Positions 1,831 to 38,076 are shown, counted from the first letter of the stretch. The stretch is DNA of 64,000 bases from a bacterium UBP11_UBA4055 (GCA_002382735.1 DFZN01000044.1:93-64092), one strand, 5' to 3'. Notes: generated from the letters alone by a model not told the origin. Numbers and translations: made by a program.

Positions 1831-2233
1831 CTGTCTGAGCTATCTCTTCGTTCCACTGATCAAGAACCGATAAAAAGAGAGCGTTCTTCCTAACGAACCG
1901 ACCCTTAACAAGCATATCAGCTTTTTTAAGCAGTCTCGGGTGCGATTCGATCTTCTGGTTTTCTCTGTAGAAAAGTTCGACTTCTTTTGTTTTAGGCTTA
2001 TAATACAGCCATTCAGACTGACCCGTTCCTTCTTTAATTTCTCTGAGTAATGCCTGCAGGACAGATTCATTATCTTCTACTTTACCGCAAATGAACGACC
2101 ATTTTTCATCATCTGATCTTCGCTCTTCAAATAAAACTTTATCACCATCATATATGATCCCCACAACACCGATACTCCTCGGCATATTCGGGCTGGGGGC
2201 TTTCTTGCTGTTGTAATAATATCTTGACTTCAT
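1715..2233 (-). CDS. NUDIX hydrolase
   Basis: Nudix box GKVEDNESVLQALLREIKEGTG (Gx5Ex7REUxEExGU) preceded by GVVGIIYDGDKVLFEERR. Confidence 0.6.
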   Translation of the reverse strand: MKSRYYYNSKKAPSPNMPRSIGVVGIIYDGDKVLFEERRSDDEKWSFICGKVEDNESVLQALLREIKEGTGQSEWLYYKPKTKEVELFYRENQKIESHPRLLKKADMLVKGRFVRKNALFLSVLDQWNEEIAQTVMKCFYAQGLFRDCSISYTLVQSGTKDLLPCLIYVRCV

Positions 2234-5396: not shown

Positions 5397-5800
5397 GCTT
5401 CAGGTCTCAAATATACAAAATATGCTAATTCATTTTTGTAGATCTCATCATTTCTGCTTTCAACTTCAGGAAAATATTTTTTTGTCAATTCGAATATGAT
5501 TCGACCTTTCATTTTGGGAGATAACTTCTCGTCTAAAATAATTCTGTTTCTTTTAGAATTAAATTCTGCTAGCTTTCTTTGATGATTAACAGATTCTTGA
5601 TTTAAGCCTTCAATTAACATAGACATCCTGTTTTCCGGTAAAATAGATTCAATTTTTAGAGATTGAGTTCCATCCGCCATGTTCAAAGTTTCTAATGTCA
5701 GAGTATTAGAACTCTGATTGTTAGTGGAATTATAAAAAGAAAAAGATGCAACAGACAATAAAATTGTTGCTGTTTTTGCTTTCGAATCAATGCATTCCAA
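5393..5800 (-). CDS. Hypothetical protein (135 aa, hydrophobic N-terminus)
   Basis: ORF translationally coupled (4-bp overlap) to 4932..5396. No motif recognised. Confidence 0.35.
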   Translation of the reverse strand: MECIDSKAKTATILLSVASFSFYNSTNNQSSNTLTLETLNMADGTQSLKIESILPENRMSMLIEGLNQESVNHQRKLAEFNSKRNRIILDEKLSPKMKGRIIFELTKKYFPEVESRNDEIYKNELAYFVYLRPEA

Positions 5801-5820
5801 GAAACCCGTAAATTCTCCTG

Positions 5821-6528
5821 TTACTCATATTCTGGATTTAATGTATCTATGAATTCTTTTTTTAACAGATTGAAAAATAATTTTTTATTTTTTTTATGCA
5901 GATTGTTAAGAAGATCTTTGACAACCTCCAACCTCACTTCATCGCCCTGTAAAATTGTATCTATATCAATAACAGAACCGTTCATGGAATTATAGTTAGC
6001 TGAGTTCGAGATTTGTATTATGTGTTTACAATTGTCATCTGCAAAAACAGCTTGAAAATTTTTAGATTGTGACTCTAAATCCAAAGCACTATGCTCAATA
6101 GAAAGATTAATCTTTTCAAAAATATCAGCCTCAAAAAAATCAATATATCGTATCCCTATCTTTTTTACAGATTTGACTATCTTAAGCTCAGACATTATGT
6201 TTATTATACGAAGAACTTCATTTTCAAATACTATCCAGCCTACATATTCAATAGGTGAACTCACTGTAACTACTTTTGGGCCGATCTGCACTTTAAACCC
6301 TTTTACAGATGTAATTAAATAATGAGGTTTATATCTCAAAGATTCATCTTTATCCCTTAAAACTTCCGGTAATTGAGTAATAGGCAGCTCCGAGACTGCC
6401 GGATAATCATTTTTTAAAGAATTATATATAACCCCAAAAACAGCAGACGGATGCAGTATTGTGTCAAATCTGAACTCAGTAATAGCATCAATTATCGGTT
6501 GCGGACTTATGCGTATTGGCAATTTCAT
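5821..6528 (-). CDS. Hypothetical protein, TIGR04255-like N-terminus
   Basis: N-terminal PQPIIDAITEFRFD resembles the PLVEVVxExRF start typical of the TIGR04255 family. Function unknown. Confidence 0.35.
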   Translation of the reverse strand: MKLPIRISPQPIIDAITEFRFDTILHPSAVFGVIYNSLKNDYPAVSELPITQLPEVLRDKDESLRYKPHYLITSVKGFKVQIGPKVVTVSSPIEYVGWIVFENEVLRIINIMSELKIVKSVKKIGIRYIDFFEADIFEKINLSIEHSALDLESQSKNFQAVFADDNCKHIIQISNSANYNSMNGSVIDIDTILQGDEVRLEVVKDLLNNLHKKNKKLFFNLLKKEFIDTLNPEYE

Positions 6529-6690
6529 TCGGCACCTTCTTTTTTTGCAAATATAACTTATAAATTTCTTTTTAGCAATTGCAAATCATAAGTTTTTTAT
6601 ACCTAACTTTTTACCCTATCGCTGGTACCCGCACCCTTATCGAAACACACGCCGACAGACTGAGCAGAAGAAGAACCAATCTCTTATTAA

Positions 6691-7437: not shown

Positions 7438-8715
7438 TTACCCGTTCAAATAATCTTCTCTGTGCTTCATAGTGTGGCATTTTCTGCACCAGTGACCCGC
7501 TTTGATCCGTTTTGGCTCAGCTTCCCAGACATGTCCGTTTTCGCATTGAAACACTAATCTTGTATAATTATTTACATACTCTGTTGACAAGCATTTTCCG
7601 CCCCGCTTTGCTACAATTTCTTTTATCTCATCAAAACTCCCCTGCAGTTTCTTTCTTGCGGATTCTTCTCCGCAGGCAGGGCACCATGATCCTCTCACAA
7701 TGTTTCTCGCTTCGGATTCAAAAATATGACCTTTGCCGCATTTATATTTCAAAACTGTTCGGTTGTTTTTATACACGGTGGAAAGGCACTGACCTCCCAT
7801 TTTCTCTGCCATTTTCTTAAAATTCTCGAGCCTGTCGCTTATCTTTTTACCTCTTAATACAGGCGCACATTCCGGGCACCAGTGACCTTGCATAATATAC
7901 CACGGTCTTGTGCTCCATCTGTGTCCTTTGCTGCATATAAAATTCAGCTTTGATCCCGATAAACTCTCCGAAAGACACTCTCCATTCTTTTCTTTCGCAA
8001 TTTCTTTAATTCTTTCAATAGTATATATTGTTCTGGGTTTACTGGCTGTAATTTTACTGTTTCTGATCTTATACCCGCACAACCTGCACCAGTGACCTTG
8101 CTTAATATGCATCGGAGCAGCCCACCATATATGATTTTCTTTGCAGATAAATTTCAATTTTGTATTACTGTTGACATACTTATCTGAAAGACATTTCCCT
8201 CCGTACTCTTCCGCAATTTTGTGATATATATCTATAGAATCGGTAGTTTTTTCTTTAGCTTTCTCAATTCCGCACTTCGGGCACCAACTGCCTTTTTTGA
8301 CTGAGCCGGCAGTTATCTTAAATTTATGACCTTCCCTGCACTCCACATCAAGTTTCTGGAGGCGATTTATATATTCATCAGTAAAACATTTACCGCCTTT
8401 ATCAGTGATTATTTTCTTAATTTCATTAAAATCGTTCTTCTGCGGTTCTACTGTCTTCTTCTTACCGCACACCGGGCACCACTGACCTTTAATAATTCCT
8501 CTCGGAGTCGTAGCCCAGACATGACCTTCCTTACATTGAAATTCCATTTTTGTTGAAACATTCACATATTTCTCAGAAAGACATTTACCGCCCTTATTCT
8601 CAGCGATCCCGCACATGAGCTTATATCTCTCTATGTAATATTCTTTACCGAGAAGGTGGCTCTGCAATAAATTTTTAAGTGGTTTCATTTTTATTCCTTC
8701 ATCTAACCTACTCAC
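7438..8715 (-). CDS. Repeat protein with six tandem ~67-aa treble-clef-like Zn-ribbon modules
   Basis: Six iterations of GGKCLSxxYxNxxTKLxFxCxxGHxWxxxPxxIxxGxWCPxCG. DNA shows a ~200-bp periodicity of ccgggcaccagtgacc-like strings. Confidence 0.6.
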   Translation of the reverse strand: MSRLDEGIKMKPLKNLLQSHLLGKEYYIERYKLMCGIAENKGGKCLSEKYVNVSTKMEFQCKEGHVWATTPRGIIKGQWCPVCGKKKTVEPQKNDFNEIKKIITDKGGKCFTDEYINRLQKLDVECREGHKFKITAGSVKKGSWCPKCGIEKAKEKTTDSIDIYHKIAEEYGGKCLSDKYVNSNTKLKFICKENHIWWAAPMHIKQGHWCRLCGYKIRNSKITASKPRTIYTIERIKEIAKEKNGECLSESLSGSKLNFICSKGHRWSTRPWYIMQGHWCPECAPVLRGKKISDRLENFKKMAEKMGGQCLSTVYKNNRTVLKYKCGKGHIFESEARNIVRGSWCPACGEESARKKLQGSFDEIKEIVAKRGGKCLSTEYVNNYTRLVFQCENGHVWEAEPKRIKAGHWCRKCHTMKHREDYLNG

Positions 8716-9786: not shown

Positions 9787-10185
9787 CTACAATATTACCG
9801 GGAAGAAATGATGCGGAACTATCAACTGTCGCTTTTTAACATTCTCAAAGTATTTGCTATAATAAAACATTGCGATCTGACCGCCACACGAGTGCGCAAG
9901 TAAATAAAATTCCTTAATATCTAACACAATACAAAGATCATTTACCCATTCGGCAATCCTATCAATCCTATAATCAACATCAGACTCAAACGGAGCTGTT
10001 TTTCCATGAGCCGGCAAATCAATACTGATAAGGTAAAAATCATTTTTCAATGCTTCCGCCACCTCTATAAAACTCAATTGCGTACTACCTAATCCATGCA
10101 GGCATAAAACTACCGGATTGTTTACATTTCGCCATTCGGCTATTCTTGTCCTCGTGCCTGCTACTTCAACAAAACTTTGTTTCAT
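9787..10185 (-). pseudogene. Truncated alpha/beta-hydrolase gene (N-terminal 132 aa only)
   Basis: HGLGST and nucleophile elbow AHSCGG are present, but the ORF ends before the Asp/His part of the catalytic triad. A second degraded copy lies at 11845-12060. Confidence 0.5.
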
Positions 10186-10276: not shown

Positions 10277-11170
10277 CTATTCCCAGACCCATTTTTTAGG
10301 ATTCCAGTTTTCTCCAGCTTCTTTACTTTCAAAGAGGGGTTTAATAAATTTGATAATTTGTGAGGCAATTTCTGAGAAAGATTTATTTACATTTAGTTCA
10401 TTTCTCTTCAAAAAGGCTTTCCATTGAGTTTCAAAATTTTTGCCGTTAATAAACTCATCTGAATAAACAACATTCAATCCATCAAGAGATGTTTTCCTCT
10501 TTGAGAAAGTCGTTTCCAGTGATTTCAGCAATTCGGACCTTGTAAATTTGTGGTTTTCTGCCAGAAAATGTATATCAAAGAAATCCTTCATGCGGCTGGT
10601 GGAGTAATTTAGTTTTACTATAGACTCAAGCTTCTCGGAAATAACCGATTCGAATGGATATATTTTTATATTTGCCTCATCGTAGTCAAGCATTCCCGGA
10701 TATGGTAAAACTATCACATCCTGACTTAAAGCATCACCGAAGCCAACATCTAAAGCGATTTTCTTAAGCACTGAATCAAGATTAACATCAAGTTTGATCC
10801 TGACACCTTCATAATCTGCACCTTCTTTGATAATTTCTGTTGTTATAGAAGTATGCAGAAATTTCAGTCCGTCGTCTTCTACTTTTGTTCCGCAGATATC
10901 TTTGATGATATTTTTAATTGCTTTTTGATCGTTTTCAATTTTTTCACCCAGAAAATCAATATCTTTGGTAGGTCTGAATTCTGAAACACCCAATAAAGTA
11001 AGAACAAGTCCGCCTTTAAGTGTAAAATTATCTTTATAATCTGACTTAGAAAGCCTGTATAAAAATCTTTCCTGCATAAATCTGAGAATAACAAAATCAA
11101 AATTAAGGTCTTTTTCTTTTGCGATATTTTTTAATCTCGCTTTAACTGATGCAGCTACATTTTTTGTCAT
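10277..11170 (-). CDS. AbiEii/AbiGii-family nucleotidyltransferase toxin (type IV TA / abortive infection)
   Basis: N-terminal ASVKARLKNIAKEKDLNFDFVILRFMQERFLYRLSKSDYKDNFTLKGGLVL...RPTKDIDFLG is the DUF1814/AbiEii signature. Confidence 0.8.
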   Translation of the reverse strand: MTKNVAASVKARLKNIAKEKDLNFDFVILRFMQERFLYRLSKSDYKDNFTLKGGLVLTLLGVSEFRPTKDIDFLGEKIENDQKAIKNIIKDICGTKVEDDGLKFLHTSITTEIIKEGADYEGVRIKLDVNLDSVLKKIALDVGFGDALSQDVIVLPYPGMLDYDEANIKIYPFESVISEKLESIVKLNYSTSRMKDFFDIHFLAENHKFTRSELLKSLETTFSKRKTSLDGLNVVYSDEFINGKNFETQWKAFLKRNELNVNKSFSEIASQIIKFIKPLFESKEAGENWNPKKWVWE

Positions 11171-11172
11171 AC

Positions 11173-11796
11173 TTATCCGAGAAGAGTTTTTATTGAGGAA
11201 TTAATTATTTTTGCCACTCTGCAAATTTTCGCATATTCTTTCAGCTTGAAAAAATCAGTATTCTTACTGTTTACATAATTCTTCAAACATTCGTACGCAA
11301 TGTCTTCACCGATCTTGTTTTTATATCTGAAAATATCACATATCGACTTTTCTCTATCATATATTCTCACAATGCCGTATTTTGTTTCAATTTTATTTAT
11401 TCCCAGATTGAAAGTTTTTTCAGAAAAATAATATCCTTTTACTTTAACACTGTAAATCTTCGGTATCTTCTTATCTCTTTCTACTGCTATATGAACCAAT
11501 GGATTGATATAAGTCGTAAGATCATAGTAAGAAAGTGCTGATAGAATGCAGATTACAGAATCAGGAGCAGCTTTTGCGATATCCACAAAATCAAAACTTA
11601 CATTTCCCGGCTCTGTCAGTTCTGCCAACCTGTACAAACCCGGTTTTACCCTGATAATAGTTCCATTATCGACTATTTGTTTGATATGCAAAGAGTGAAA
11701 CCCTTTCTTTTTAAGATCCATATCTCTTACATAACCATTGTTTTTTTCAAAATATTTAATAATCTCAGTCATAAATCTTGTCCTATTCTTCTGCAC
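11173..11796 (-). CDS. AbiEi-family antitoxin (transcriptional regulator)
   Basis: 207-aa ORF 2 bp upstream of the AbiEii gene. N-terminal wHTH-like segment (GYVRDMDLKKKGFHSLHIKQIVDNGTIIRVKPGLYRL) is typical of AbiEi. Confidence 0.7.
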   Translation of the reverse strand: MQKNRTRFMTEIIKYFEKNNGYVRDMDLKKKGFHSLHIKQIVDNGTIIRVKPGLYRLAELTEPGNVSFDFVDIAKAAPDSVICILSALSYYDLTTYINPLVHIAVERDKKIPKIYSVKVKGYYFSEKTFNLGINKIETKYGIVRIYDREKSICDIFRYKNKIGEDIAYECLKNYVNSKNTDFFKLKEYAKICRVAKIINSSIKTLLG

Positions 11797-11844
11797 TTAG
11801 ACTCTACATGCGGAGCTTTCAGACAATATAATAAAATTAATTTG

Positions 11845-12060
11845 TGATGTCAATTCTTTAAATTTTACATTACTAAAGTATTTGCTATAATAGTACATTG
11901 CAATTTGACCACCCCACGAGTGCGCAAGTAAATAAAAATCCTTAATATCTAAAACAATACAAAGATCATTCACCCATTCGGATTGTCTTTATTACCCCAT
12001 TCTGCTATTCTTGTTTTTGCGACTGACACTTCAACAAAACTTTGTTTCATACTTTAACCT
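11845..12060 (-). pseudogene. Degraded second copy of the alpha/beta-hydrolase gene 5' part (internal deletion)
   Basis: 11872-11990 and 12000-12060 align to 9855-9975 and about 10120-10200 (for example tatttgctataataaaacattgcgatctgaccgccacacgagtgcgcaagtaaataaaattccttaatatct). No intact ORF. Confidence 0.5.
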
Positions 12061-12111: not shown

Positions 12112-12285
12112 ATTACTCATCATAGTCATCGTAATCGTCCATTTGATTTTCGCTGTCGATCTCTATTTGACACTGTGAACATAGTTGTCCGTTCATTACA
12201 TAGATCCAGTTTTCTCCGGGCTGTAACGCCTCTGCGAACAATGTACAGCCGCAACTTGCACATTGATAATGGTATTTAGGCATAC
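12112..12285 (-). CDS. Small Zn-ribbon protein with acidic tail (57 aa: MPKYHYQCASCGCTLFAEALQPGENWIYVMNGQLCSQCQIEIDSENQMDDYDDYDE)
   Basis: Manually translated, below the ORF-track size cut-off. CxxC...CxxC with a DDYDDYDE tail. 11 bp downstream of the RelE-like ORF with an RBS-like ggagatcag upstream. Confidence 0.4.
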
Positions 12286-12296
12286 TGATCTCCTTT

Positions 12297-12539
12297 TTAT
12301 CTTTTTAGTTTTTTTATCTGATTTTCATAGGCATCGTGATTGCCTACAAAGGCCAGACCCGTTTTAGAAAAAAGCAACCGATATTTATTGTTTAACTTAC
12401 AGGAAAAATAGCCCGGGAGACTGGAAATATTTTTCCACCCGCTCCATTTTGGATTGAAAAGATTATCGCTGCTGACTATAGATTCAGCTTTGAATAATAC
12501 ATTGTCAGGTACATGGCTTATGCAGATTATGCGAAACAT
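12297..12539 (-). CDS. RelE/YoeB-family toxin-like protein
   Basis: GYFSCKLNNKYRLLFSKTGLAFVGNHDAYE fits the RelE/YoeB C-terminal pattern (G[YW]xSxRIxxxxRLxYxxxxxxLxxxxxxxHY). Start overlaps the radical SAM gene end. Confidence 0.45.
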   Translation of the reverse strand: MFRIICISHVPDNVLFKAESIVSSDNLFNPKWSGWKNISSLPGYFSCKLNNKYRLLFSKTGLAFVGNHDAYENQIKKLKR

Positions 12540-13405
12540 GATTCTCTCCTTTCTTCAGTTACACTGTGGTATTTATAAAACTTTACAAGATCAACGAACT
12601 CATTCGCAGTGAAATTTTTAAAATTCATATCCATTACCCTGCCGATCTCAATTTTGATAATTCTTTTATTTTCGATTTTATTGGTATGAATAATCCCGTC
12701 AGGTGTGATATTCATGTACGAGTTATGCATCTGATCGTTATTTTCAATTACAAGCTGAACTTCTGAACCATTTAATTGATCTTCTACATATTTTCTCAAA
12801 TCTTCAAAATCATCGTCAGACACAGTAAGACTGTCATCTTTTTCTGTAAATTCTACAACCGGCATATACTGGTAAATTTTCCAGCGATAGTAACCGTTCT
12901 TTTTCACAAATTCACACATTTCTCTTATGCTAACGAGATTGATCGAAGTTACGACGGTATTTAGCTTTATTTTCATGCCGGATTTTCTTGCATAATGATG
13001 CAATGATAAGGCATGTGACAAATGGCTTACAGGTCTGCCTAAAAGCACCTGTTCTGCATTGTTCAGAGTGTCAATATCAATTGTAAGTATATCAAGGACG
13101 TCTTTGAAATTATCCAGATCGGAAGTAGTAAGATAAGAACCGTTTGTTATCAGTTCTGTCTTTATACCTTTTAATTTCAAATATCTAATAAGATCTATAA
13201 CTTCCGCTTTTGAATGCCAAAGCATCGGCTCGCCGCCTGCAAGACTCAGCTTTCTGCATCCCCAGCTGTAAAGCTTGTCTGTTATTCCTTTTGCTTCTTC
13301 GTAGCTGGACAGCTTACCGCTTGTGTATCTGTAGCAGTATTTACATTTATAATTACATGCTGTGGTGAGTGACCATGATGCCGAGAAGTTGCTTTGCTGA
13401 TTCAT
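12527..13405 (-). CDS. Viperin-like radical SAM enzyme (candidate prokaryotic viperin, pVip)
   Basis: CNYKCKYCY cluster (viperin CNYKCGFCF), LSLAGGEPMLW (viperin INFSGGEPFLQ), ELITNGSYL (SIVSNGSLI), DILTIDIDTLNNAEQVLLGR ([20 protein letters not shown]) and KIKLNTVVTSINL...RWKIYQYMPV (AFKINSVINRFN...RWKVFQCLLI) all align with human viperin. Length 292 aa. Confidence 0.7.
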   Translation of the reverse strand: MNQQSNFSASWSLTTACNYKCKYCYRYTSGKLSSYEEAKGITDKLYSWGCRKLSLAGGEPMLWHSKAEVIDLIRYLKLKGIKTELITNGSYLTTSDLDNFKDVLDILTIDIDTLNNAEQVLLGRPVSHLSHALSLHHYARKSGMKIKLNTVVTSINLVSIREMCEFVKKNGYYRWKIYQYMPVVEFTEKDDSLTVSDDDFEDLRKYVEDQLNGSEVQLVIENNDQMHNSYMNITPDGIIHTNKIENKRIIKIEIGRVMDMNFKNFTANEFVDLVKFYKYHSVTEERRESCFA

Positions 13406-13468
13406 TTTGATACCTCCCTGTTAGGTTGTATCAAAATTACAGAATAAAATCTTTTAATAATATTAACG

Positions 13469-13505
13469 ACACAAAGACTGTAATTTGATTTTTTACAGTC
13501 TTTGT
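13469..13505. promoter_or_regulatory. Perfect 14-bp inverted repeat CACAAAGACTGTAA-(9)-TTACAGTCTTTGTG upstream of the pVip-like gene
   Basis: Seen directly. Lies between the ankyrin gene stop (13553) and the radical SAM start (13405). Not followed by a U-tract in either orientation, so operator-like rather than terminator. Confidence 0.4.
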
Positions 13506-13552
13506 GCTAAATCCAGTTTTATTATTAAGTTATTTAAAAGTAAGACCTATTG

Positions 13553-16168
13553 TTATTCTAAAATCTGAACTAACTTTTTATTGTTTGACATTTTGGCAAT
13601 ATCCAAGATTGTGTACTCACCGGCCTCTTTCATAGTTTTATCAAATCCAAGATCAAAGATCTTTCTTGTCATTCTGATAATTATGTCAGGTATTTCACTT
13701 TGATCTTTAAAAGTCATAAACAATGGGTATAAGACAGTATATTCTTTGTTCGATTCCACATTTTTATATTTAATATTTATTAATTCAGCCATATCTTTCG
13801 GATAATTGTCGAGAAGATATTCTGCGAATTCATAATTACCAAATCCTACAGCTAATCCTATAACAGTCGCTTTATTTACAAGCTGGTGCTTAATGTTTGC
13901 GCCATATTTTAATAACTTTTCGAAAATTTTTATATCTCCGATTTCTGATGAAAGAAGTAATTCTGTAAAATCATAGTCATGAAGCACATCTACTTCAGCT
14001 TTGTTTATAAGAAATGTATCTATAATTTTATAGAATGAATCTTTTTTATGTTCTATTGATTCCAATAAATATTCTGTTATTCTAAACAAATTCTCATTAT
14101 TTAATTTTGCAAATTTGTTGTATTGTTCTTTAAAATCATCATGGAATAAATTTCCAGACATCATTCTACTAATATTATCAAGTTTCATAGCTTTGATAAA
14201 ATCTTCTTTTTTCACAACATATCTTTTGTTGTTATTTATCCATTTGACCAAACTTGCTATTCTATTCACAGTAAAATACAAAGGCGTTAAACCGTCTTTA
14301 CAATTTTCAGAGCATTTTAAATTAATATCAGCTCCCTGCTTTAATACCTGCTCAACAAGTTCTGGAATTCCGCTTTCAATCGCACACATAAGAGCAGTTT
14401 TTCTTTTTCTTTTTGTTCTTGCATTTATGCTTGGATTCAAATCCAGCTCTAAAAGGAGGTTACAGCATTCCAGTTGTTTTTCACTTATAATATCACTAGA
14501 CTGAAGTTGCATTGCTCTTATCAGCGCAGTACTTCCATCATCGGCTACAATATTCGGATCTGCTTTTAATTGTATTAAATCTTTTAATTCATCTACTTTT
14601 TCAAATGAAGCAGCGATCATCATTTGTGTGAGAGGGTAATTTCCGATACCTTTAATTTTACGGTCTGGGTATCTTTTATCTACTTTCCAATTATCAATTA
14701 TTTCTTTACTGAATAAAAAATCGCTATAAGCTTCTTTGTTTAGTTTTTCATATTGTTTAATATCGGTCTTGTAATACGCTTTCGGATTGAATATGCTGTA
14801 ATACTGGCTAGTTAACTGGTCAACAATATATTCTTTTACTTCATCGTAAGGCTCATGGAACAGCTCATAGAAATTTGCCCATTTGTAGAATTTTTTGAAC
14901 ACATTTAATTTACCCAGTTTTGCAGAAAGTACCAGCCCTTCTGTTAAAATCGGTTTCAAATCTATTCCTGCCTGATACTTTCCGTCTTCATAAGCTCTCT
15001 CATAATGCAATAATGCTTCTTTCCATGATTTTTCGTCTGTTTGTAGCGCATAGAACCTTGCCCTCTGCAGTTCTAGTATGTAAGAATCATTCAATTCTTC
15101 CGATTTGGAGAGAGTGCCAAGAACTTCCTGTGCTTTTAACTGATCGTCTTTGTCTTTCTCCTTTATAGGAGATGTATATTTGTTTCCAAGTAAATTACTT
15201 GTTAAAACAATCTTACTTTTCAACTCCATTGGATTATCTTCTTTTAAAACATCGATCCGCTTCCGGAAGTGTTCAAACAATTCGTTAATATCCGTATCTA
15301 AATAATCACTCTTAACATATCTCTTTGTATTCTTTATTACAACAAAGGTGGCTTTAATTCCAAACAATTCTTCTAGATTATTTAAACAGTATTGAATTCC
15401 TCTGGCTATGAATAAGTTAAATTTTAAAGAATTCTCAGGGATTTGATCTTTATCTGTTAATCCAAGGTCAATTCCTGATAGTTCAGCTATGCTGAAAGAA
15501 CTCGGGAGATGATTATTTTTTCTCCATCTGTTGTATTTTTGGTAGAAAAGCAAAATTTTTTCAGATTCATAAAAGCTTTTATCGTTCTCAATCCTGTCTT
15601 TATATTTTTCTTTCATTATCTTCTGACAAAGCTTATAAAGAGAATCACAGTCGGTTTGATCTGCCCACCAGTCCAATACATTTGATATTGGAGATTTTAT
15701 TTTACTTTCTTCAGCTTCTTCCGGTAACCACCAGAATTCTTCTTTCGGGAATATCAGTCCGGTTTGGGAATTTTGTAAGTCTCTAACTAAACCGGAGAAC
15801 TGATAAACAAAGTAATGAGTTATTAGTGTCTTGACAATTCGTTCTCTATTAATATAGCTTACATTAAGATTCAAAGCGATATACTTGTATCCATTCAAAA
15901 TCGATGTAATCTGATTATTCAGTTCTGAGAAAAAAACTTCATTCTGAATAAGCTTGCCGAAACTTTTATTGATCACATTTTCGATAAATTCTTGAGCCCT
16001 GTCCATATCGAAATCTTTTTCCTCTGAGAATCTCTGGATGTCTTTTATAAGACCAGCCCTAGTCTTTTCGTCTGCGACCAATTCATAGAAATCGAAAGCT
16101 TCGATTATGAATTTTGTAACTTCCCCGATCGTTGGGAACCCTTTTGCTTCTTCATTTTTCTTATTCAT
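13553..16168 (-). CDS. Large (871 aa) protein with C-terminal ankyrin repeats and an uncharacterised ~500-aa N-terminal region
   Basis: Repeated GxTALxxAxxxGxxxLVExLLxxGADxN modules from about residue 540 (DDGSTALIRAM..., RKTALMCAIESGIPELVEQVLKQGADINLK, DGLTPLYFTV...). Confidence 0.65.
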   Translation of the reverse strand: MNKKNEEAKGFPTIGEVTKFIIEAFDFYELVADEKTRAGLIKDIQRFSEEKDFDMDRAQEFIENVINKSFGKLIQNEVFFSELNNQITSILNGYKYIALNLNVSYINRERIVKTLITHYFVYQFSGLVRDLQNSQTGLIFPKEEFWWLPEEAEESKIKSPISNVLDWWADQTDCDSLYKLCQKIMKEKYKDRIENDKSFYESEKILLFYQKYNRWRKNNHLPSSFSIAELSGIDLGLTDKDQIPENSLKFNLFIARGIQYCLNNLEELFGIKATFVVIKNTKRYVKSDYLDTDINELFEHFRKRIDVLKEDNPMELKSKIVLTSNLLGNKYTSPIKEKDKDDQLKAQEVLGTLSKSEELNDSYILELQRARFYALQTDEKSWKEALLHYERAYEDGKYQAGIDLKPILTEGLVLSAKLGKLNVFKKFYKWANFYELFHEPYDEVKEYIVDQLTSQYYSIFNPKAYYKTDIKQYEKLNKEAYSDFLFSKEIIDNWKVDKRYPDRKIKGIGNYPLTQMMIAASFEKVDELKDLIQLKADPNIVADDGSTALIRAMQLQSSDIISEKQLECCNLLLELDLNPSINARTKRKRKTALMCAIESGIPELVEQVLKQGADINLKCSENCKDGLTPLYFTVNRIASLVKWINNNKRYVVKKEDFIKAMKLDNISRMMSGNLFHDDFKEQYNKFAKLNNENLFRITEYLLESIEHKKDSFYKIIDTFLINKAEVDVLHDYDFTELLLSSEIGDIKIFEKLLKYGANIKHQLVNKATVIGLAVGFGNYEFAEYLLDNYPKDMAELINIKYKNVESNKEYTVLYPLFMTFKDQSEIPDIIIRMTRKIFDLGFDKTMKEAGEYTILDIAKMSNNKKLVQILE

Positions 16169-21809: not shown

Positions 21810-22556
21810 TTACACTCCACCGTCACGCTTCCTGATGTGTTCTTTTGTAACCTCGGGAATTGTAGAATTGAATAGTTCTTCTAACTCTCGCGGTTTAGTA
21901 ATCATTTCTTCAGCTATAAAATTCAAAATCTGGAATAATTTTAAAGCTATTTCCTTGTTGTCGTCCAGATTTATTTCACCAGGGTGTACCGCATTATTAC
22001 CAACAACACGAACCAAATCTAAAGCTTGCTGAATCTTTGGACTCAAACCCTCAGATACTAGCTCTTTAATATCTTGATTAATATTCTTTCCACACTTACC
22101 GAGTTGAATAAGAAGCTTCTGAAGTGCGAGTCGTAATAATGCAGCTGCGCCTTTTGGGGAATCCGTAACTATAGATGAAGCTTCATTATACAAAGTGATT
22201 ATATCTACACTAAGATCCGGATTCGGTGTCTGGGTTAATCGACTTTTTGGAAATACAAGCTGTTTATCAAACCAAAGTGATGGTTCACCACAATGAAAGC
22301 ATGTTGAGACTGCAATCTTTTGTGGTATATATCCTTGAAAGGTAGAAATGAATTGAGTGCCAACACTTTCCAAAAAATCATGTATTGGCCTTTGCTCATA
22401 ATCGGCAATACTCGATCTGTAGTCCATGTAAAAATGATTGATTATCCCGAGCGCAATACTTGCGCCTCCGTCATCATCAAACCAATCCTGCTGTGCAGTA
22501 ACACCACAATAAGGGCACTTTAGGCTTTTTGCCTTGAAATTCTTAGAATCCGCCAT
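21810..22556 (-). CDS. DUF4145 domain protein with N-terminal Cys-rich region
   Basis: C-terminal AAALLRLALQKLLIQLG...ALDLVRVVGNNAVHPGE is the DUF4145 signature (ends ...R.xGNxxAH). N-terminal CPYCG...CFHCG. Confidence 0.55.
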   Translation of the reverse strand: MADSKNFKAKSLKCPYCGVTAQQDWFDDDGGASIALGIINHFYMDYRSSIADYEQRPIHDFLESVGTQFISTFQGYIPQKIAVSTCFHCGEPSLWFDKQLVFPKSRLTQTPNPDLSVDIITLYNEASSIVTDSPKGAAALLRLALQKLLIQLGKCGKNINQDIKELVSEGLSPKIQQALDLVRVVGNNAVHPGEINLDDNKEIALKLFQILNFIAEEMITKPRELEELFNSTIPEVTKEHIRKRDGGV

Positions 22557-26532: not shown

Positions 26533-28434
26533 TTAACTCTTTAACTTTTTATTTATGAATTCAATAGACTTTTCAATTTGGTCTTTTAAATATTTTTCAC
26601 CAATATTTTTACTTATAAGTGAGAAATAGTTAATAAAAGTTATTCCTTTTTTATATTCACCGTAAAATTTTTGCCTTAACTCTTCTATTATTTGTGCATC
26701 ATTTTTAGATAAGTCTACTTCTTTTAAAAAATCAAAAAATTCCTTTAATTGCACACGAGCATATTCTCCGATATAGCTATTAAGAAAAAAACCATTTTTA
26801 TAAAGATCAAAAATATTAGCAGCAAAATAATTTTCAGTTGGATTAATCTGAATAGGCATTTCTTTATCATCCTTTGATAAAAGTATTATATTACTTGAAG
26901 GCATATCAGATGCTATAAATGGAGAGTGTGATGTGAGGATTAAATGTAAATTGCAGTTTTTAAAAAATATTTCAGTATTAAATACATTTGTAATCGTATT
27001 TAAAAATTTCCTTTGCCATTCAGGATGTAAAAGGTAATCGGGTTCATCCATTAAAATATGTATTTCTTTACCTTTGATTGATTTTCTCTTTTCTTCGTTA
27101 TCTAATAAAGTATAAAACATCGAGAAGAAAGTTAACATTGCTTTTTCTCCTGAAGAAAGACCTTTCCAATCAATTAACATGAATCCCGAATCAGGTAGCA
27201 ATCTAATTCCTTCAACTATCGTATTTAATACCTTCTTTTCTTCTTTTAATCTTATAGTAAAATTATTATAAGATTGTATCTTCGGATTATTGGTTTTTAT
27301 TATATCAATAAGTAATTGATAGTATGAACTGTAAAACTTATAACCGTTCGTAAGAATTAGCTTTGATTTAGGATTTTTCTTTATGCGAGAGTTTTCATCA
27401 AGATATAATTTGAAAAATGACATAATTCTTTCTTTTAAACTACGACCATATATTTTGTTACATTCAACCATATCATCGTCATGGTTTGTTCCATCTTTTA
27501 TAAAAACATGATAAAATAACATGCTAAAAAATTGAGTAAGAATTGCATCTTCATAATCATCTTTATAGTCATTTTTTAATGGTGTTATGACTTTATGATA
27601 AATTTCCAAATAATCCTTGCCTCTATGAACTTTTTCAGATTCCAAACGCACTGTCTCGGAATAATCAACATTTATACCGATTTTAATATATTCAGGTATT
27701 TTAAGATCTTCAATCTCTAAACCTAACTTTTCCTTCTCATATATAAAATTAAGACATTTAAGTACTAAGTATTGTTCTAAACTTTGAGTTAAGTTTTCAT
27801 TAGGTTTCAACAACAACCAATCTTTAAAATCTCTACTATTTATAATAGCGTCAATAGAAATGTTATTTTTATACGCACTTTCGTAACCATTAAAATCACT
27901 ACGATTAAGAAATATGTTACTATAAAAAATCATATTATCTTGTGATAGTGCTTGATATTTCATACCGGGTAGTGCTTGCTCAATATTATTGTATAAGTAT
28001 AAATCATCTGTTAAGGTAAGGCTATATTTCTTTAATGATTGTATCTTAGCTAACTCTTTAGACTTTTTACATATATAAAAAGCTTTATTAGACCATAAAT
28101 AAAATTCTTCATTTTCTTTATAAACTAGTATTGCTTTATCTTCAACTGGAAAAGTCCATTTTTCTTCCAATCTGTACAATCCAGAAATTATTGTAGATTT
28201 ACCAACGCCATTTTTTCCAATAATTGCTGTTATATTTTTAACTGCATTTCCTTGTGAATTTGTAAAAAATTCAGGAATGTAATTTTCATTCTTACTGCAT
28301 ATTAGAATATCTTTCCCATCTTTATTTATTACACTAAAAATAAACTCACTTCCAAAATTAAAACATGCAATCTTGTCAGAGTTTTGCAAACATCCAAAAG
28401 CAGGATGATCTTTTGTCCACAAAAATACAATCAT
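26533..28434 (-). CDS. ABC/SMC-type (AAA_15/AAA_21-like) ATPase (PtuA-like)
   Basis: Walker A GKNGVGKST near residue 75, signature-like LSSGEKA, Walker B HILMDEPDYLLH, H-loop LILTSHSPFI near the C-terminus. 633 aa. Extremely AT-rich coding sequence. Confidence 0.65.
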   Translation of the reverse strand: MIVFLWTKDHPAFGCLQNSDKIACFNFGSEFIFSVINKDGKDILICSKNENYIPEFFTNSQGNAVKNITAIIGKNGVGKSTIISGLYRLEEKWTFPVEDKAILVYKENEEFYLWSNKAFYICKKSKELAKIQSLKKYSLTLTDDLYLYNNIEQALPGMKYQALSQDNMIFYSNIFLNRSDFNGYESAYKNNISIDAIINSRDFKDWLLLKPNENLTQSLEQYLVLKCLNFIYEKEKLGLEIEDLKIPEYIKIGINVDYSETVRLESEKVHRGKDYLEIYHKVITPLKNDYKDDYEDAILTQFFSMLFYHVFIKDGTNHDDDMVECNKIYGRSLKERIMSFFKLYLDENSRIKKNPKSKLILTNGYKFYSSYYQLLIDIIKTNNPKIQSYNNFTIRLKEEKKVLNTIVEGIRLLPDSGFMLIDWKGLSSGEKAMLTFFSMFYTLLDNEEKRKSIKGKEIHILMDEPDYLLHPEWQRKFLNTITNVFNTEIFFKNCNLHLILTSHSPFIASDMPSSNIILLSKDDKEMPIQINPTENYFAANIFDLYKNGFFLNSYIGEYARVQLKEFFDFLKEVDLSKNDAQIIEELRQKFYGEYKKGITFINYFSLISKNIGEKYLKDQIEKSIEFINKKLKS

Positions 28435-33692: not shown

Positions 33693-35243
33693 TTATTCAT
33701 CATTACCTCCGAATACGGGCGGGGTGATTCCGAGTTCTTTGCACTGCGCGATGATCTTTTTGTCTGTGAGTTTTATGTCAGCTTCGATGTTTTTGAGTTC
33801 CTGCGCGATCTTATCGAGGTCAATTTCGTCTTCCTCTTCGAATGTATCGACATATCTTGGAATGTTGAGGTTGTAGTCGTTCTGCCTGATCTGTTCTATT
33901 GAGGCTGAGTGCGAGTATTTTTCTTCCTCTTTTCTGTTCCTGTATGTGCTTATGATCTTTTCGACATCTTCATCGCGTAGATTGCTCTGATTTTTGGCTT
34001 TTTCGTAAGACCGGCTTGCGTCTATGAAGTGTATGCTGTCGGATTCTGTTCTGCATTTTTTGAATACGAGGATGACTGTGGGTATTGATGTTCCGTAAAA
34101 GATGTTCGCGGGCAGTCCGATGACGGCATCGAGCCAGTTCTTTTCCTCAATGATGTATTTTCTGATCTCGCCTTCCGCTGCTCCTCTGAATAGTACTCCG
34201 TGCGGTAAGACTATTGCCATTGTTCCGTTCTCGTCAAGCTGATAGAGCATGTGCTGAACGAATGCGAAGTCCGCCTTTGTTTTCGGCGCGAGTTTTCCGT
34301 ACGGGCTGAATCTTTCGTCCGATAAGAAGGTCTGGTTTGCCGCCCAGTGCGCGGAGAATGGCGGATTGGCTACTACTGCCTCAAAGCGTTTGTCCAGGTC
34401 GTGCGGTTCTTCGAGAGTGTCTCCCTGCGTTATGTGAAAATCGTTGTATTTGACCGAATGGAGTATCATATTCATTCTCGCCAGGTTGAAAGTGGTGGTG
34501 TTTAATTCCTGCCCGTAGAAGTCCGATACTTTACATTCCTTCGATACCCTGAGTAAGAGCGATCCCGAGCCGCAGGTTGGGTCATATACCGATCTGAGTC
34601 TTTCTTTGCCTGTCGTGACGATCTTTGCCAGTATTTTTGATACCTGCTGGGGCGTATAGAACTCACCCGCTTTCTTTCCCGCTCCGCTCGCGAACTGTGA
34701 GATTAAATATTCATAAGCGTCGCCGAGTACATCCGCCTCTGTGTCCTCAAGCCTGAAATCAACTTCCGCTATGTGCTTGATAACTTCCGAAATGAGCTTG
34801 TTCTTCAGCTCGACCGTTCTTCCGAGCTTTGTCGAAGTAAGATCAACATCCTCAAAAAGTCCCGCGAAATCCTCCTCGCTCTTATGGCCGATGGTTGCTT
34901 CCTCCACCGATTTTAATGCCTTGCCGAGATCTTCAATTACAAACTCCCTGTTCCTTGCCCTTTCCGCTATCCTGCTGAATAAGTTTGCTGGTAAAATAAA
35001 AAAGCCCATATCTTCGATACATTCCTCTTTTAAGTCATGCGAAAGCTCTTTATCCTTCATAGCCTCTTCAAAGCTCAATTTGTCCGATTTTAGCTCATCT
35101 GAAACGAATTTCTCGATCTTTTCCGATAAGAATTTATAAAAAATAAAGCCGAGGATATAGTCCCTGAATTCATCCGCACCCATATTTCCGCGTAAAGTGT
35201 TCGCTATGTCCCATAATTTCTGTTCGAGCTTCTGCTTTGTCAT
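33693..35243 (-). CDS. hsdM: Type I restriction-modification DNA methyltransferase subunit HsdM (N6-adenine)
   Basis: N-terminal HsdM_N-like region, SAM-binding DPTCGSGSLL, catalytic motif IV VVANPPFS. Confidence 0.9.
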   Translation of the reverse strand: MTKQKLEQKLWDIANTLRGNMGADEFRDYILGFIFYKFLSEKIEKFVSDELKSDKLSFEEAMKDKELSHDLKEECIEDMGFFILPANLFSRIAERARNREFVIEDLGKALKSVEEATIGHKSEEDFAGLFEDVDLTSTKLGRTVELKNKLISEVIKHIAEVDFRLEDTEADVLGDAYEYLISQFASGAGKKAGEFYTPQQVSKILAKIVTTGKERLRSVYDPTCGSGSLLLRVSKECKVSDFYGQELNTTTFNLARMNMILHSVKYNDFHITQGDTLEEPHDLDKRFEAVVANPPFSAHWAANQTFLSDERFSPYGKLAPKTKADFAFVQHMLYQLDENGTMAIVLPHGVLFRGAAEGEIRKYIIEEKNWLDAVIGLPANIFYGTSIPTVILVFKKCRTESDSIHFIDASRSYEKAKNQSNLRDEDVEKIISTYRNRKEEEKYSHSASIEQIRQNDYNLNIPRYVDTFEEEDEIDLDKIAQELKNIEADIKLTDKKIIAQCKELGITPPVFGGNDE

Positions 35244-35250
35244 TTATTGC

Positions 35251-38076
35251 CTACCATTTATATTTATTCACGATGCTTTCTATGCTGTTTTCGAGTTGTT
35301 CGATCTTTCTTTTCCGTTCCGAAAGTTTAAGATTGCCGACGAGTGCCGATTTGATCTTATCGCGCTGGAATTTGTTTGAAAATTCATATTCCTCGACCAC
35401 TGCGTAAACGAGTGCTTTATCAAGCTTTTCCGATCTTATCATCGCCCCTATCTCTTTTTCCTTTTCCTTTGAGATGAATTTGTCGAATTCTTCCTCCACA
35501 TTCGCGTCTGTGCCCAGTTCAGGCAGGTTTTCCTTAATGAACCTTTCGATCAGTTCGCGCTTGCTTCTGAGTTCGTCCGAGCCTTCCATGGTCTTTAAGA
35601 TAAATTCCACATCTTTACTAAATCCGGAATCGTTCATGTCGAGGTCTTTTAACAGCTTTAAGATATAATCCACATTGATATCGTCCCTGCGCACGAGTTC
35701 GACTTCAAAATCAAGGTCTTTTAAGATAGATTCCTTATCAGGGTCTTTCGTTTCGTCGCGAATGTCTAAATATTTGCTCCTGTAATCCTCAAATTCCTGC
35801 CTTGATATGGAAAGGTCGTCATATTCAAATTCGGTGAAGGTCACAAGTCTGTTCATGATGCGTAAGAGGTTCCTGAAAGCTTTGACGAAAAGTGCTTTCT
35901 GCTCATCGCCTTCGAGCCTGTCAACCGAATCTATTGTCGGCGTAAGGTTTTTTAATTCTTCGAGCGCATTGTTAAAATCTACCGCGTATTCCGTGTAGGC
36001 TTTCATAAGTACGGTTTCAATGGCTTCGGGATTGGAAAATAGTGCTATCGCTTCGTCTGTTCTTTTCTTGAGATTTCTGAAGCAGACGATATTGCCGTAT
36101 TTCTTCTTTTCCCCAAGCACCCTGTTCGTTCTTGAAAATGCCTGAATCAGCCCGTGATAGCGCAGGTTCTTATCCACATACAGAGTATTGGTATAAACGC
36201 TGTCGAATCCCGTTAAGAACATATTGACGACAAGCAGAATGTCTATCTTCTTTTCCTTCACCTTTTTGGAAATATCCACAAAATATGCGTTGAAGCCGTT
36301 GTCCTTGTTCAGGTCGAAGTTGGTCTTGAAAGTTTTGTTATAGTCATCCACGATCAGATCGAGCTTTTCTCTCGGGTGGACCTGCCTGTCGCCGTAAATT
36401 GCCTGATCCTCCGCAACCATGCTCATGTATTCTTTCTGCTTATAGTTCCCGTACTGATCCTCAAGCTCCTCGTTTGCCTGATATGAAAAGATGGTCGCTA
36501 TGTTCAAATTATGCTTCTTATGCCTGAAAAGTTCATAGTATTTCAAAAGCGTGTCTATCGAGCTCACCGCGAAAATCGCATTGTATTCCCTGTTATATGT
36601 CTTTCTGTCGTGATTCTTTATAATAAAATCAGCTATGTTGGACAGCCTTTCATCCGCCGAAAAAACCTCATCCTTATTTATGCCTTTGACCTTATCCATT
36701 TCATCCACATCAATATCATCGCCGTTCTCTTCTTTTAAAAATTTTGACCTGAAAGTGGAATAGTACTCGACGGAAAAACCGAGCACATTATCATCGTCTA
36801 TAGCATCCTTAATGATATATTTGTGCAAACATGAACCGAAAAGATCCTTCGTGGTAGTAAACCCGACGCTGTTCTCCTCGAATATCGGAGTGCCCGTAAA
36901 GCCGAAGAAAAGCCTGTTCTTAAAATAATCTTTTATCCTTTTGTGGGTTTCCCCGAACTGGCTCCTGTGGCATTCGTCAAAAATAAATATTATGCGCTTG
37001 TTGCTTACATCGCCGAGCCTGTTGTTGAATTTGACCCTGCTGACAGCATTGTTGAGCTTCTGTATCGTTGTTATGATAAGCTTCGTCTTTTCGTCGGAAA
37101 GCTGTTTAACGAGCATTTTTGTGTCGTCTGTGGCGTCAACCGAGCCTTTCGAGAATTTGTTGAACTCCTTCATGGTCTGGAAGTCGAGATCTTTCCTGTC
37201 AACGACGAAGACGACCTTGTCAACATCCTTGTCGGCGGTGATGATCTGGCTGGCCTTGAATGAAGTGAGCGTTTTGCCCGAGCCTGTCGTGTGCCAGATG
37301 TAGCCGTTCCGGTCAACTTTGCCCGCCACGCGCTTGATTATCTTTTCAGCTGCGAAATACTGGTAAGGTCTGAGCACCATTAGGAATTTATCCGATTCGT
37401 TGAGGACTATGTATTTTGAGATCACTTTGGCGAGATGGCATTTTTCCAGGAAAATATCCGCGAATTCGTTCAGCCTGTTGAATTTTTCGTTCTTTTCATC
37501 CGTCCAGCAGAAGCTTTGCTTGAAGTTTAGAGTTCTGTTGTTCGCGAAATATCTTGTGTTGACCCCGTTTGAAATGATGAAAAGCTGGAGGTATAAAAAG
37601 AGGCCTCTGAACGAATGATCTTTGTAGCGGCATATCTGGTTAAACGCCTCTTTAAGTTCTATGCCGCGCCTTTTCAGCTCGATCTGGACGAGCGGCAGCC
37701 CGTTGATCAAAATAGTCACATCGTAGCGGTTCTTGTACCTCTCCGCCATATTTATCTGGTTTGATGCCTGGAATTCGTTCTTGCACCATTCTTCGGTGTT
37801 GAAAAATTCAATGTAGGAAAGCGTATCGTCGTCTCTGTACAGCTCGAACTTGTTGCGCAGTTTCTTCGATTTATCGAATATCGTTCCGCCGTCAAGGTGA
37901 TTAAGTATCTTATTAAATTCTGATTTGGAGAAAGTGGTCTTATTGTGCTTTTCGAGCTGAGTTTTAAAGTTCGCCGTCAGATCTTTTTCATCGTGCAGAA
38001 TGATCTTTTCATAGCCCTGAATTTGCAGCTGTTCGATGAGTTTTTTCTCTAAAGTCGCTTCCGATTGAATGCACAT
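35251..38076 (-). CDS. hsdR: Type I restriction endonuclease subunit HsdR (SF2 helicase-nuclease)
   Basis: Walker A HTTGSGKTLTSF, DEAH-like IFDECHRSQ, N-terminal PD-(D/E)xK region. 941 aa. 7-bp gap to hsdM. Confidence 0.9.
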   Translation of the reverse strand: MCIQSEATLEKKLIEQLQIQGYEKIILHDEKDLTANFKTQLEKHNKTTFSKSEFNKILNHLDGGTIFDKSKKLRNKFELYRDDDTLSYIEFFNTEEWCKNEFQASNQINMAERYKNRYDVTILINGLPLVQIELKRRGIELKEAFNQICRYKDHSFRGLFLYLQLFIISNGVNTRYFANNRTLNFKQSFCWTDEKNEKFNRLNEFADIFLEKCHLAKVISKYIVLNESDKFLMVLRPYQYFAAEKIIKRVAGKVDRNGYIWHTTGSGKTLTSFKASQIITADKDVDKVVFVVDRKDLDFQTMKEFNKFSKGSVDATDDTKMLVKQLSDEKTKLIITTIQKLNNAVSRVKFNNRLGDVSNKRIIFIFDECHRSQFGETHKRIKDYFKNRLFFGFTGTPIFEENSVGFTTTKDLFGSCLHKYIIKDAIDDDNVLGFSVEYYSTFRSKFLKEENGDDIDVDEMDKVKGINKDEVFSADERLSNIADFIIKNHDRKTYNREYNAIFAVSSIDTLLKYYELFRHKKHNLNIATIFSYQANEELEDQYGNYKQKEYMSMVAEDQAIYGDRQVHPREKLDLIVDDYNKTFKTNFDLNKDNGFNAYFVDISKKVKEKKIDILLVVNMFLTGFDSVYTNTLYVDKNLRYHGLIQAFSRTNRVLGEKKKYGNIVCFRNLKKRTDEAIALFSNPEAIETVLMKAYTEYAVDFNNALEELKNLTPTIDSVDRLEGDEQKALFVKAFRNLLRIMNRLVTFTEFEYDDLSISRQEFEDYRSKYLDIRDETKDPDKESILKDLDFEVELVRRDDINVDYILKLLKDLDMNDSGFSKDVEFILKTMEGSDELRSKRELIERFIKENLPELGTDANVEEEFDKFISKEKEKEIGAMIRSEKLDKALVYAVVEEYEFSNKFQRDKIKSALVGNLKLSERKRKIEQLENSIESIVNKYKW

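Follow-up and report, generated by a model that had tools for sequence, protein, structure and literature searches.

In a 64,000-nucleotide (nt) stretch of DNA from the bacterium UBP11_UBA4055 (GCA_002382735.1, DFZN01000044.1:93-64092), hereafter the window, with all coordinates counted from its first letter, we found a gene for a 292-amino-acid (aa) radical S-adenosylmethionine (SAM) enzyme that sequence comparison places in a rare clade sister to the canonical viperins. The enzyme is translationally coupled to a small protein of predicted RelE/ParE fold, which accompanies the clade in most of its loci. Viperins, which are considered single-enzyme systems, provide the most familiar example of an antiviral defence that has been conserved between bacteria and humans. 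The reading that we favour, with a probability of roughly 0.55, is that the window holds an anti-phage operon in which a viperin-like chain-terminating nucleotide would be reinforced by a RelE/ParE-type block. The pairing of the sister clade with a ParE_like protein is probably new; the antiviral viperin theme and the linkage of RelE genes to prokaryotic viperins (pVips) were already known. The genes and features of the locus are the following.

13553-16168, minus strand: gene for an 871-aa ankyrin-repeat protein, a facultative partner or a neighbour
13470-13483 and 13493-13506, minus strand: arms of a perfect 14-bp inverted repeat with a 9-nt loop, forming a 15-bp stem as RNA
13404-13413 and 13428-13437, minus strand: arms of a perfect 10-bp stem that encloses a GGGAGG Shine-Dalgarno sequence and abuts the ATG of the radical SAM gene
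12527-13405, minus strand: gene for the 292-aa radical SAM enzyme, of the putative viperin sister clade
12297-12539, minus strand: gene for an 80-aa protein (small80) of predicted RelE/ParE fold, Pfam ParE_like type
12297-12578, minus strand: recombined cassette, consisting of the 80-aa gene and ~40 nt upstream of it, with 88% DNA identity to a metagenome-assembled genome (MAG) of Spirochaetota
12113-12283, minus strand: gene for a 56-aa Zn-ribbon protein (Zn56) with four Cys and an acidic tail

Relationship of the radical SAM enzyme to viperins

The enzyme matches the Pfam Radical_SAM family (2.8e-19) and carries the cluster-binding motif CxxxCxxC (C17/C21/C24), GGEP at 57-60 and TNG at 87-89. 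A previous reading of this DNA, made from the sequence only, had described it as viperin-like along almost its whole length, which was borne out by several approaches. HMMER alignments to solved viperins reproduced the likeness motif by motif, the pVip models of PADLOC matched with near-full model coverage (PDLC02904, 1.1e-50; PDLC02903, 8.6e-50), and phmmer searches of the PDB sequences gave 72-79 bits for viperins and 28 for MoaA. An AlphaFold2 (AF2) model of the enzyme, with a predicted local distance difference test (pLDDT) score of 93.8, was compared with the PDB using Foldseek, and the top 30 matches were viperins without exception. Superposition on mouse viperin with bound CTP (6q2p) yielded template-modelling (TM) scores of 0.83/0.83 at 2.4 Å over 286 columns, C-terminal extension included, compared with a TM score of 0.58 for MoaA. 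The model thus predicts a viperin fold, in which the partial (beta-alpha)6 barrel is closed by the C-terminal extension.

The sequence-only reading had gone further and called the enzyme a pVip, which held for the viperin likeness and not for canonical membership. On the NCBIfam hidden Markov model (HMM) viperin_w_prok (NF038283) the enzyme scored 169.7 bits, under the 180-bit cutoff, and five further members of its clade scored 157.8-171.1 bits, all below the same cutoff. A canonical pVip reached 287.6 bits on this model and other radical SAM proteins 80-94; the MoaA model gave 73.5 bits for the window enzyme, so that viperins were its best match by ~100 bits. Among 5.8 billion proteins we retrieved about ten close cluster relatives (37-57% identity), none of them on a plasmid, with canonical viperins next at ~30%. 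In a neighbour-joining tree of 89 sequences with 200 bootstraps, rooted on uncharacterised radical SAM proteins rather than on curated MoaA and with canonical viperins drawn from hits to the query, the clade was monophyletic in 88% of replicates and the canonical viperins in 80%, and the two as one group were separated from other radical SAM proteins in 84%. This topology argues for a rare monophyletic clade sister to the canonical viperins, not nested within them. Its members are named 'radical SAM protein' by NCBI, and the relatives in JGI only 'MoaA/NifB/PqqE/SkfB family'.

The clade keeps a number of residues in alignment columns that vary little or not at all among canonical viperins, namely R124, K147, N149, W175-K176, E221, S229-Y230 and N242. 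R124, K147 and K176 correspond to mouse R194, K220 and K247, which we take to be contacts of the triphosphate. The conserved active-site Tyr that has been proposed for a proton-coupled electron transfer step (PMC8124187) aligns with Y230, and the beta-8-loop Asn of 'promiscuous' pockets (10.1101/2023.09.13.557418) with N242. Three other signatures are replaced. The N-x-H signature before the cluster motif (mouse N77/H79), whose His was present in every one of the 63 canonical sequences sampled, reads S10-W-S12 in the enzyme; clade-wide, its first position is Ser (100%) and its His position Ala, Phe or Ser, never His. The canonical ISCDS is IDID in the clade, and the invariant C-terminal Arg of viperins is mostly Tyr. 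With N-x-H, ISCDS and the C-terminal Arg replaced, the substrate or the chemistry may differ. A nucleotide substrate is well supported by the sequence comparisons. As to the synthesis of 3'-deoxy-3',4'-didehydro (ddh) nucleotides, which had also been claimed for the enzyme, we infer ddh-synthase chemistry and do not regard production of ddh-nucleoside triphosphates (ddhNTPs) as assured, because the clade lies below the viperin cutoff, in a sister position, and has lost N-x-H.

The PDB also contains crystal structures of a 'second viperin-like enzyme from Trichoderma virens' (9dfn/9dfu), of which 9dfu is an F40H variant; residue 40 could not be mapped to our alignment. It may therefore be that viperin-like enzymes with natural changes at a signature residue are already being studied.

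A small RelE/ParE-like protein accompanies the clade

The stop of the radical SAM gene overlaps the start of the 80-aa gene by 13 nt, and a further 13 nt separate the 80-aa stop from the start of the Zn-ribbon gene. GGAG-type Shine-Dalgarno sequences precede all three genes downstream of the 871-aa gene. The four open reading frames (ORFs) and the stop/start overlap are thus as the sequence-only reading described them.

The 80-aa protein is basic, with an isoelectric point (pI) of 9.75, and had been called RelE/YoeB-like, a proposal with which our profile searches agree. Against Pfam ParE_like (PF24732) it scored 16.2 bits (E 0.011), below the gathering threshold of 24.4 bits; the partner homologues at other clade loci exceed this cutoff, the protein of locus L004 with 53.6 bits (2.2e-14). 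An HMM built from five of these partners, the window protein excluded, recovered the 80-aa protein over residues 9-79 with 22.9 bits (E 4.8e-6, Z=1000), and the small partners have in common the motif YR[LFI]L...V[GS]xHDxY[ED]. Profile matches of the family in the PDB were weak (RelE3 0.12, YoeB 0.24, HigB 0.96), and an hhalign comparison with E. coli RelE, for which an approximate query sequence was used, aligned the YRL strand only. Taken together, the profiles point to a member of the RelE/ParE-fold family.

A ParE_like gene adjoins the enzyme gene in the window, L004, L008, L010/L011, L017 and L018, at spacings from an 8-13-nt overlap to a 31-nt gap. The partners outside the window are 82-92 aa long and only 21-34% identical to the window protein. 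This adjacency was found at six of eight distinct core-clade loci, compared with none of ten canonical pVip loci (one-sided Fisher p = 0.0015, for a small sample of clade loci that are not phylogenetically independent). At L001 the slot is filled by a DUF4258-like protein of 89 aa, 30% identical to the DUF4258 hit of the Sumerlaeota locus L023, and at L012 by an NYN protein; both are predicted from sequence to be RNase-toxin-like. The conserved core thus appears to be a viperin-sister enzyme together with a small RNase-toxin-like protein.

The attachment of a toxin-like gene to a pVip had been considered non-standard, a claim that does not stand: according to Gerdes (2024, mBio, PMC10865869), hicA and 15 relE genes adjoin pVips, and that article asks how these antitoxin-less RNases are controlled. 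The published pairs resemble ours in having a small RelE-superfamily toxin-like gene beside a viperin-type gene without an obvious antitoxin. They appear to differ in that their pVips carry the NCBI annotation 'viperin family', whereas the enzyme here belongs to a sub-cutoff sister clade, and in that the partner here is PF24732 ParE_like, is near the rule (6/8) rather than occasional, and usually comes with a third, large gene. Since its members bear no annotation beyond 'radical SAM protein', the clade probably lay outside that survey.

The small80 gene has moved beyond viperin-type loci. Copies with at least 90% identity occur in a Spirochaetota MAG, and the 88% DNA identity to that MAG is limited to window positions 12297-12578 around small80. 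Since a cassette at this level of identity sits in a different operon, small80 is probably a module common to two nucleotide-centred operons. The other operon (L094:1-3695, from Spirochaetota MAG GCA_016937815.1, and L095) encodes, in order, a 145-aa protein, a uracil phosphoribosyltransferase (UPRTase)-like phosphoribosyltransferase (PRTase) of 191 aa, the small80 homologue, a 700-aa metallo-beta-lactamase/beta-CASP/RMMBL nuclease and a NUDIX protein. None of its proteins that were tested matched a PADLOC model, and we regard it as a candidate for an uncharacterised defence operon. Its NUDIX gene is 89% identical in DNA to window positions 2018-2088, which suggests the same island locus with different cargo in a related strain.

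The Zn-ribbon protein

Zn56 is acidic (pI 4.05), with two CxxC pairs and an acidic tail; it had been described as a Zn-ribbon of 57 aa with such a tail, of which all but the length, 56 aa, was correct. Matches to Pfam Zn_ribbon_8 and to an NCBIfam FmdB-type model cover its first 13-14 residues only. A 58%-identical homologue that resembles it in Cys pattern and acidic tail is encoded in Sumerlaeota (L023), directly downstream of the canonical pVip that scored 287.6 bits and overlapping its stop; this pVip is preceded by a DUF4258-like protein. Beyond L023, the word-index search, viral contigs and plasmids yielded no Zn56 homologue, and near the ParE-like genes of L004, L008, L010, L017, L018 and L094 there was neither a Zn56 homologue nor any small acidic ORF. 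From the L023 homologue beside a pVip and the lack of one at the other ParE-like loci, the Zn-ribbon seems to track viperin-type genes and not the ParE-like gene.

The 80-aa ORF and the Zn-ribbon had been taken as an attached pair. This pairing is not fixed, as each recurs without the other, the former at ParE-like loci (six of them) and the latter at L023. With pI values of 4.05 and 9.75, Zn56 is plausible as an antitoxin in the window; since most ParE-like loci lack a candidate antitoxin, the reading of small80 and Zn56 as toxin and antitoxin does not hold in general. A role for Zn56 as a rubredoxin-like electron donor was also considered and set aside, there being no rubredoxin match in Pfam; the redox potential of rubredoxins is also unsuitable for this role.

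The ankyrin protein and other large partners

The gene upstream of the enzyme had been read as encoding a very large protein with a novel N-terminal region of ~500 aa and C-terminal ankyrin repeats, and this we could confirm. The repeats occupy residues ~516-860 of the 871 (Pfam Ank_2, 1.2e-20). The region ~1-510 is novel and predicted to be all-helical, a prediction that comes from an unreliable AF2 model (pLDDT 47 with a two-sequence alignment, unusable as a structure). In a word-index search the N-terminal 510 residues seemed almost unique; an exhaustive HMMER search with this region retrieved 70 representative homologues at E<=1e-3, 19 of them at <=1e-10. Ankyrin repeats are also present in 28 of the 30 best homologues, and where the sources name these proteins they are called only 'ankyrin repeat protein'. 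The 871-aa protein thus appears, from these searches, to belong to a real but small family.

As a partner of the enzyme, which is how it had been presented, the ankyrin protein is not conserved in the clade. A search of other genomes for the pairing recovered it at one other clade locus, L001, where a full-length homologue (38% identity) follows the radical SAM and DUF4258-like genes with a 2-nt gap; as gene order differs between L001 and the window, the pairing has survived rearrangement. A homologue of ~30% identity stands alone on a Halanaerobiales metagenome contig (L096:1-18595); on one side of it is a type III-B Cmr cluster that includes a CorA-family gene, and on the other are two AAA-ATPase_like/PDDEXK_9 genes. 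This hints that members of the ankyrin family are defence-island genes by themselves. Elsewhere in the clade the ankyrin protein is absent and unrelated large proteins take its place: 1213 aa at L004 (with a relative at L018), 1059 aa at L010, 769 aa at L007, at least 590 aa at L017, 599 aa at L012 and an MpAgo-type Argonaute in Thermotogota (L021, L022). Large gene and enzyme gene are separated by 2 nt at L001, 1 nt at L004 and L018, and 9 nt at L017 and L012. BLASTP and hhalign comparisons among the large partners and with the ankyrin-family profile revealed no homology, and none of the large partners matched a PADLOC model. For the 1213-aa protein, Pfam gave sub-threshold hints only (CwfJ_C_1 0.002, CHAT 0.05).

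Some of these loci merit description in their own right. In the Nitrospirota MAG JADFXO010000063.1 (L012:455-3705) an outer member of the clade is accompanied by an NYN/PIN-type RNase (185 aa, 20-nt gap) and the unannotated 599-aa protein (9-nt gap), and is another case of an RNase, a viperin-like enzyme and a large unknown protein. Downstream of the clade enzyme at L008 (5122-6537) are two tandem basic low-complexity ORFs of 54/55 aa (76% identical) and a Thg1-like protein of 283 aa (tRNA-His guanylyltransferase family). In Fervidobacterium thailandense (NZ_CP140110.1; L021:5937-11842) and a Thermotogota MAG (L022:4329-10197) the clade enzyme, here 287 aa long, 36% identical to the window enzyme and scoring 167.6 bits on the viperin model, lies inside a CRISPR-associated operon. 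The gene order is AEP-TOTE/CAPP-like primase-polymerase, a Cas2-like protein of 111 aa (in L022), radical SAM, MpAgo-type Argonaute and Cas1. The CAPP-Cas1-Cas2-MpAgo operon has already been published (PMC8211822), and the term 'radical SAM' is absent from the text of that article and of the other Argonaute papers found.

The intergenic region upstream of the enzyme gene

The 871-aa and radical SAM genes are 147 bp apart (13406-13552), in keeping with the ~150-bp gap and the perfect 14-bp inverted repeat noted earlier. The RNA of the gap has a folding energy of -35.1 kcal/mol, compared with -18.2 +/- 3.1 for shuffled sequences (z = -5.4). The 14-bp repeat is a candidate terminator, attenuator or operator and was not flagged by a consensus terminator scan. 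The 10-bp stem at 13404-13437 is present in both the minimum free energy and the centroid structures of the gap RNA and may serve translational control of the radical SAM gene. For conservation or covariation of the stems, the only copies of the locus are identical ones, without sequence variants. Rfam and tRNA scans of the window returned no known RNA family and no tRNA.

The surrounding defence island

The first ~39 kb of the window form a defence island, as did every clade context examined. Recognizable systems in the island include the following.

10277-11796: AbiEi/AbiEii pair
21810-22556: PD-T7-4
26533-28434: PtuA-like AAA ATPase
33693-38076: type I restriction-modification hsdM and hsdR

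An extension of the system into the flanking genes of the window was rejected, as none of these recurs in the related loci. Metagenomes from hydrocarbon-degrading enrichment cultures contain identical copies of the locus, and the match of 88-89% in DNA to the Spirochaetota MAG over the small80 and NUDIX genes suggests a related host.

Three further observations concern the island and its relatives. Flanking AbiEi/AbiEii, at 9787-10185 and 11797-11973, are two fragments of an alpha/beta-hydrolase gene, which have in common DNA segments of 84-89% identity. The arrangement resembles the outcome of an insertion into duplicated hydrolase genes or of recombination between them. At 7438-8715 a 425-aa protein with about six treble-clef zinc-finger units (DUF4379/CapR-like matches) is encoded, for which PADLOC gave no match. 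In an older metagenome assembly of this locus (L014; JGI 3300000032, Draft_c0041232) the radical SAM gene (190 + 112 aa; 5764-6643) and AbiEii (97 + 164 aa; 8000-8616) are each broken in two; with two such breaks on a single contig, errors of assembly or sequencing are a better explanation than pseudogenisation.

Discussion

In the anti-phage operon that we favour, the enzyme would abstract a ribose hydrogen from a nucleoside triphosphate and release a ddhNTP-like chain terminator, which would stall phage transcription. The RelE/ParE-like protein would add a second block, at the level of RNA or translation, much as Gerdes (2024) proposes for pVip-linked RelE and HicA. The acidic Zn-ribbon might restrain the basic small80 or otherwise regulate the operon, and the 871-aa protein may be a facultative third module, as a sensor or protein-binding adaptor, or merely a neighbouring defence gene. 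The Zn-ribbon occurs in the window and at L023, the DUF4258-like protein at L001 and L023, the ankyrin family in the window, at L001 and alone at L096, and the ParE-like protein in the window, at five other clade loci and in the PRTase operon. From this distribution, the Zn-ribbon and the ankyrin protein would be optional modules, belonging to a set that is exchanged among viperin-type loci.

Among known systems, pVips and eukaryotic viperin (RSAD2) are the closest in kind. The clade has in common with them the fold, the cluster and SAM motifs, the Arg, two Lys, Asn and Tyr residues at viperin-invariant positions and the location in defence islands. It differs from pVips in its scores (158-171 bits compared with the cutoff of 180 and 288 for a canonical pVip), in having S-x-S/A/F for N-x-H, and in its habitual association with partner genes, being neither a single-gene system nor one with a kinase partner. 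Canonical pVips, by comparison, are said to act alone.

A multi-gene precedent is Ophion, a validated defence system of the radical SAM protein OpnA, the PHP protein OpnB and the PRTase OpnC (10.1101/2025.09.30.679545). OpnA is, like the present enzyme, related to viperins and distinct from pVips, and it needs its partner genes; moreover, the small80 cassette is found elsewhere with a PRTase and a phosphoesterase-type nuclease. The window operon, however, has neither PHP nor PRTase and thus a different partner set. We tested the enzyme as an orthologue of OpnA and rejected this (21% identity; 11 bits on the clade HMM). The two small genes of the window also recall toxin-first type II toxin-antitoxin systems (higBA, mqsRA), with a basic RelE/ParE-fold protein of ~80 aa and, 13 nt further on, a small acidic protein that has a zinc-binding motif; they differ in that the putative antitoxin Zn56 has no DNA-binding domain and in that the two genes do not co-occur elsewhere.

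Several observations weigh against the favoured reading: the replacement of N-x-H, ISCDS and the C-terminal Arg, the scores of the clade below the viperin cutoff, the solitary ankyrin homologue beside the Cmr genes, the large partners without mutual homology or PADLOC match, the small80 cassette teamed with a different enzyme set, and the lack of a candidate antitoxin at most ParE-like loci. A rival reading is that uncoupled defence modules, a stand-alone pVip-type enzyme, small80 with Zn56 and an autonomous ankyrin gene, have come to lie side by side by chance. The mobility of the small80 cassette, the stand-alone ankyrin homologue, the unrelatedness of the large partners, the 147-bp gap with its strong hairpin between the ankyrin and radical SAM genes and the general understanding that canonical pVips act alone would all fit such a juxtaposition, which we nevertheless consider unlikely. 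ParE-like genes adjoin, and often overlap, the enzyme gene at six of eight core-clade loci despite deep divergence, as opposed to none of ten canonical loci, the genes overlap by 13 nt in the window, at five loci 1-9 nt separate the large gene from the enzyme gene, and the adjacency of ankyrin and radical SAM genes has outlasted a change of gene order between the window and L001. A second rival is that the substrate or the chemistry has diverged, so that a modified nucleotide other than a ddhNTP would be used, sensed or delivered by the partners in the manner of Ophion; the variable large protein would then be a sensor or an effector, and the RelE/ParE-like protein an effector. We give this a low probability, comparable to that of chance juxtaposition. 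Loss of N-x-H and other viperin-invariant positions, the consistently sub-cutoff scores with the sister-clade position, the near-obligate partner genes that canonical pVips do not have, the association of small80 with a PRTase and a nuclease elsewhere, and the Ophion precedent argue for it; yet residues at the invariant basic positions of viperins are kept, as are their Tyr and beta-8-loop Asn, the model superposes over its full length on CTP-bound viperin, OpnA is not closely related, and the partners lack annotation, with no sensing domain evident.

A related and somewhat less probable proposal is that the clade constitutes a distinct multi-component system, in which a viperin-derived enzyme without N-x-H would make a nucleotide other than a plain chain terminator, this product would arm, or be sensed by, the RelE/ParE-like protein, and interchangeable large proteins (the ankyrin protein with its novel domain, the 1059-1213-aa unknowns and the MpAgo-type Argonaute) would act as phage sensors or effectors. 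Should it be true, the Zn-ribbon, DUF4258-like and ParE-like proteins would be an accessory tool-kit shuffling among nucleotide-modifying defence enzymes, including the PRTase/beta-CASP system. A role outside defence, for example in the maturation of a cofactor or of ribosomally synthesized and post-translationally modified peptides (RiPPs) with the small ORFs as substrates or chaperones, is very improbable. Radical SAM genes beside small ORFs are indeed typical of RiPP clusters, and JGI names the relatives only 'MoaA/NifB/PqqE/SkfB family'; however, the enzyme has no SPASM or twitch domain and viperins are by far its best matches, the small ORFs encode predicted RelE/ParE-fold and Zn-ribbon proteins and not leader peptides, and all contexts examined are defence islands.

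The locus brings to light an apparent, rare sister lineage of the viperins that curated annotation has missed. Because N-x-H has been replaced naturally in this lineage, it would help to test which residues determine ddh-synthase chemistry. The acidic Zn-ribbon and the predicted helical domain of ~500 aa in the ankyrin protein are uncharacterised families of defence islands. To the question raised by Gerdes (2024), of how pVip-linked RNase toxins are controlled, and to that of whether they cooperate with the nucleotide product, the operons of this clade may offer natural combinations in which it can be addressed.

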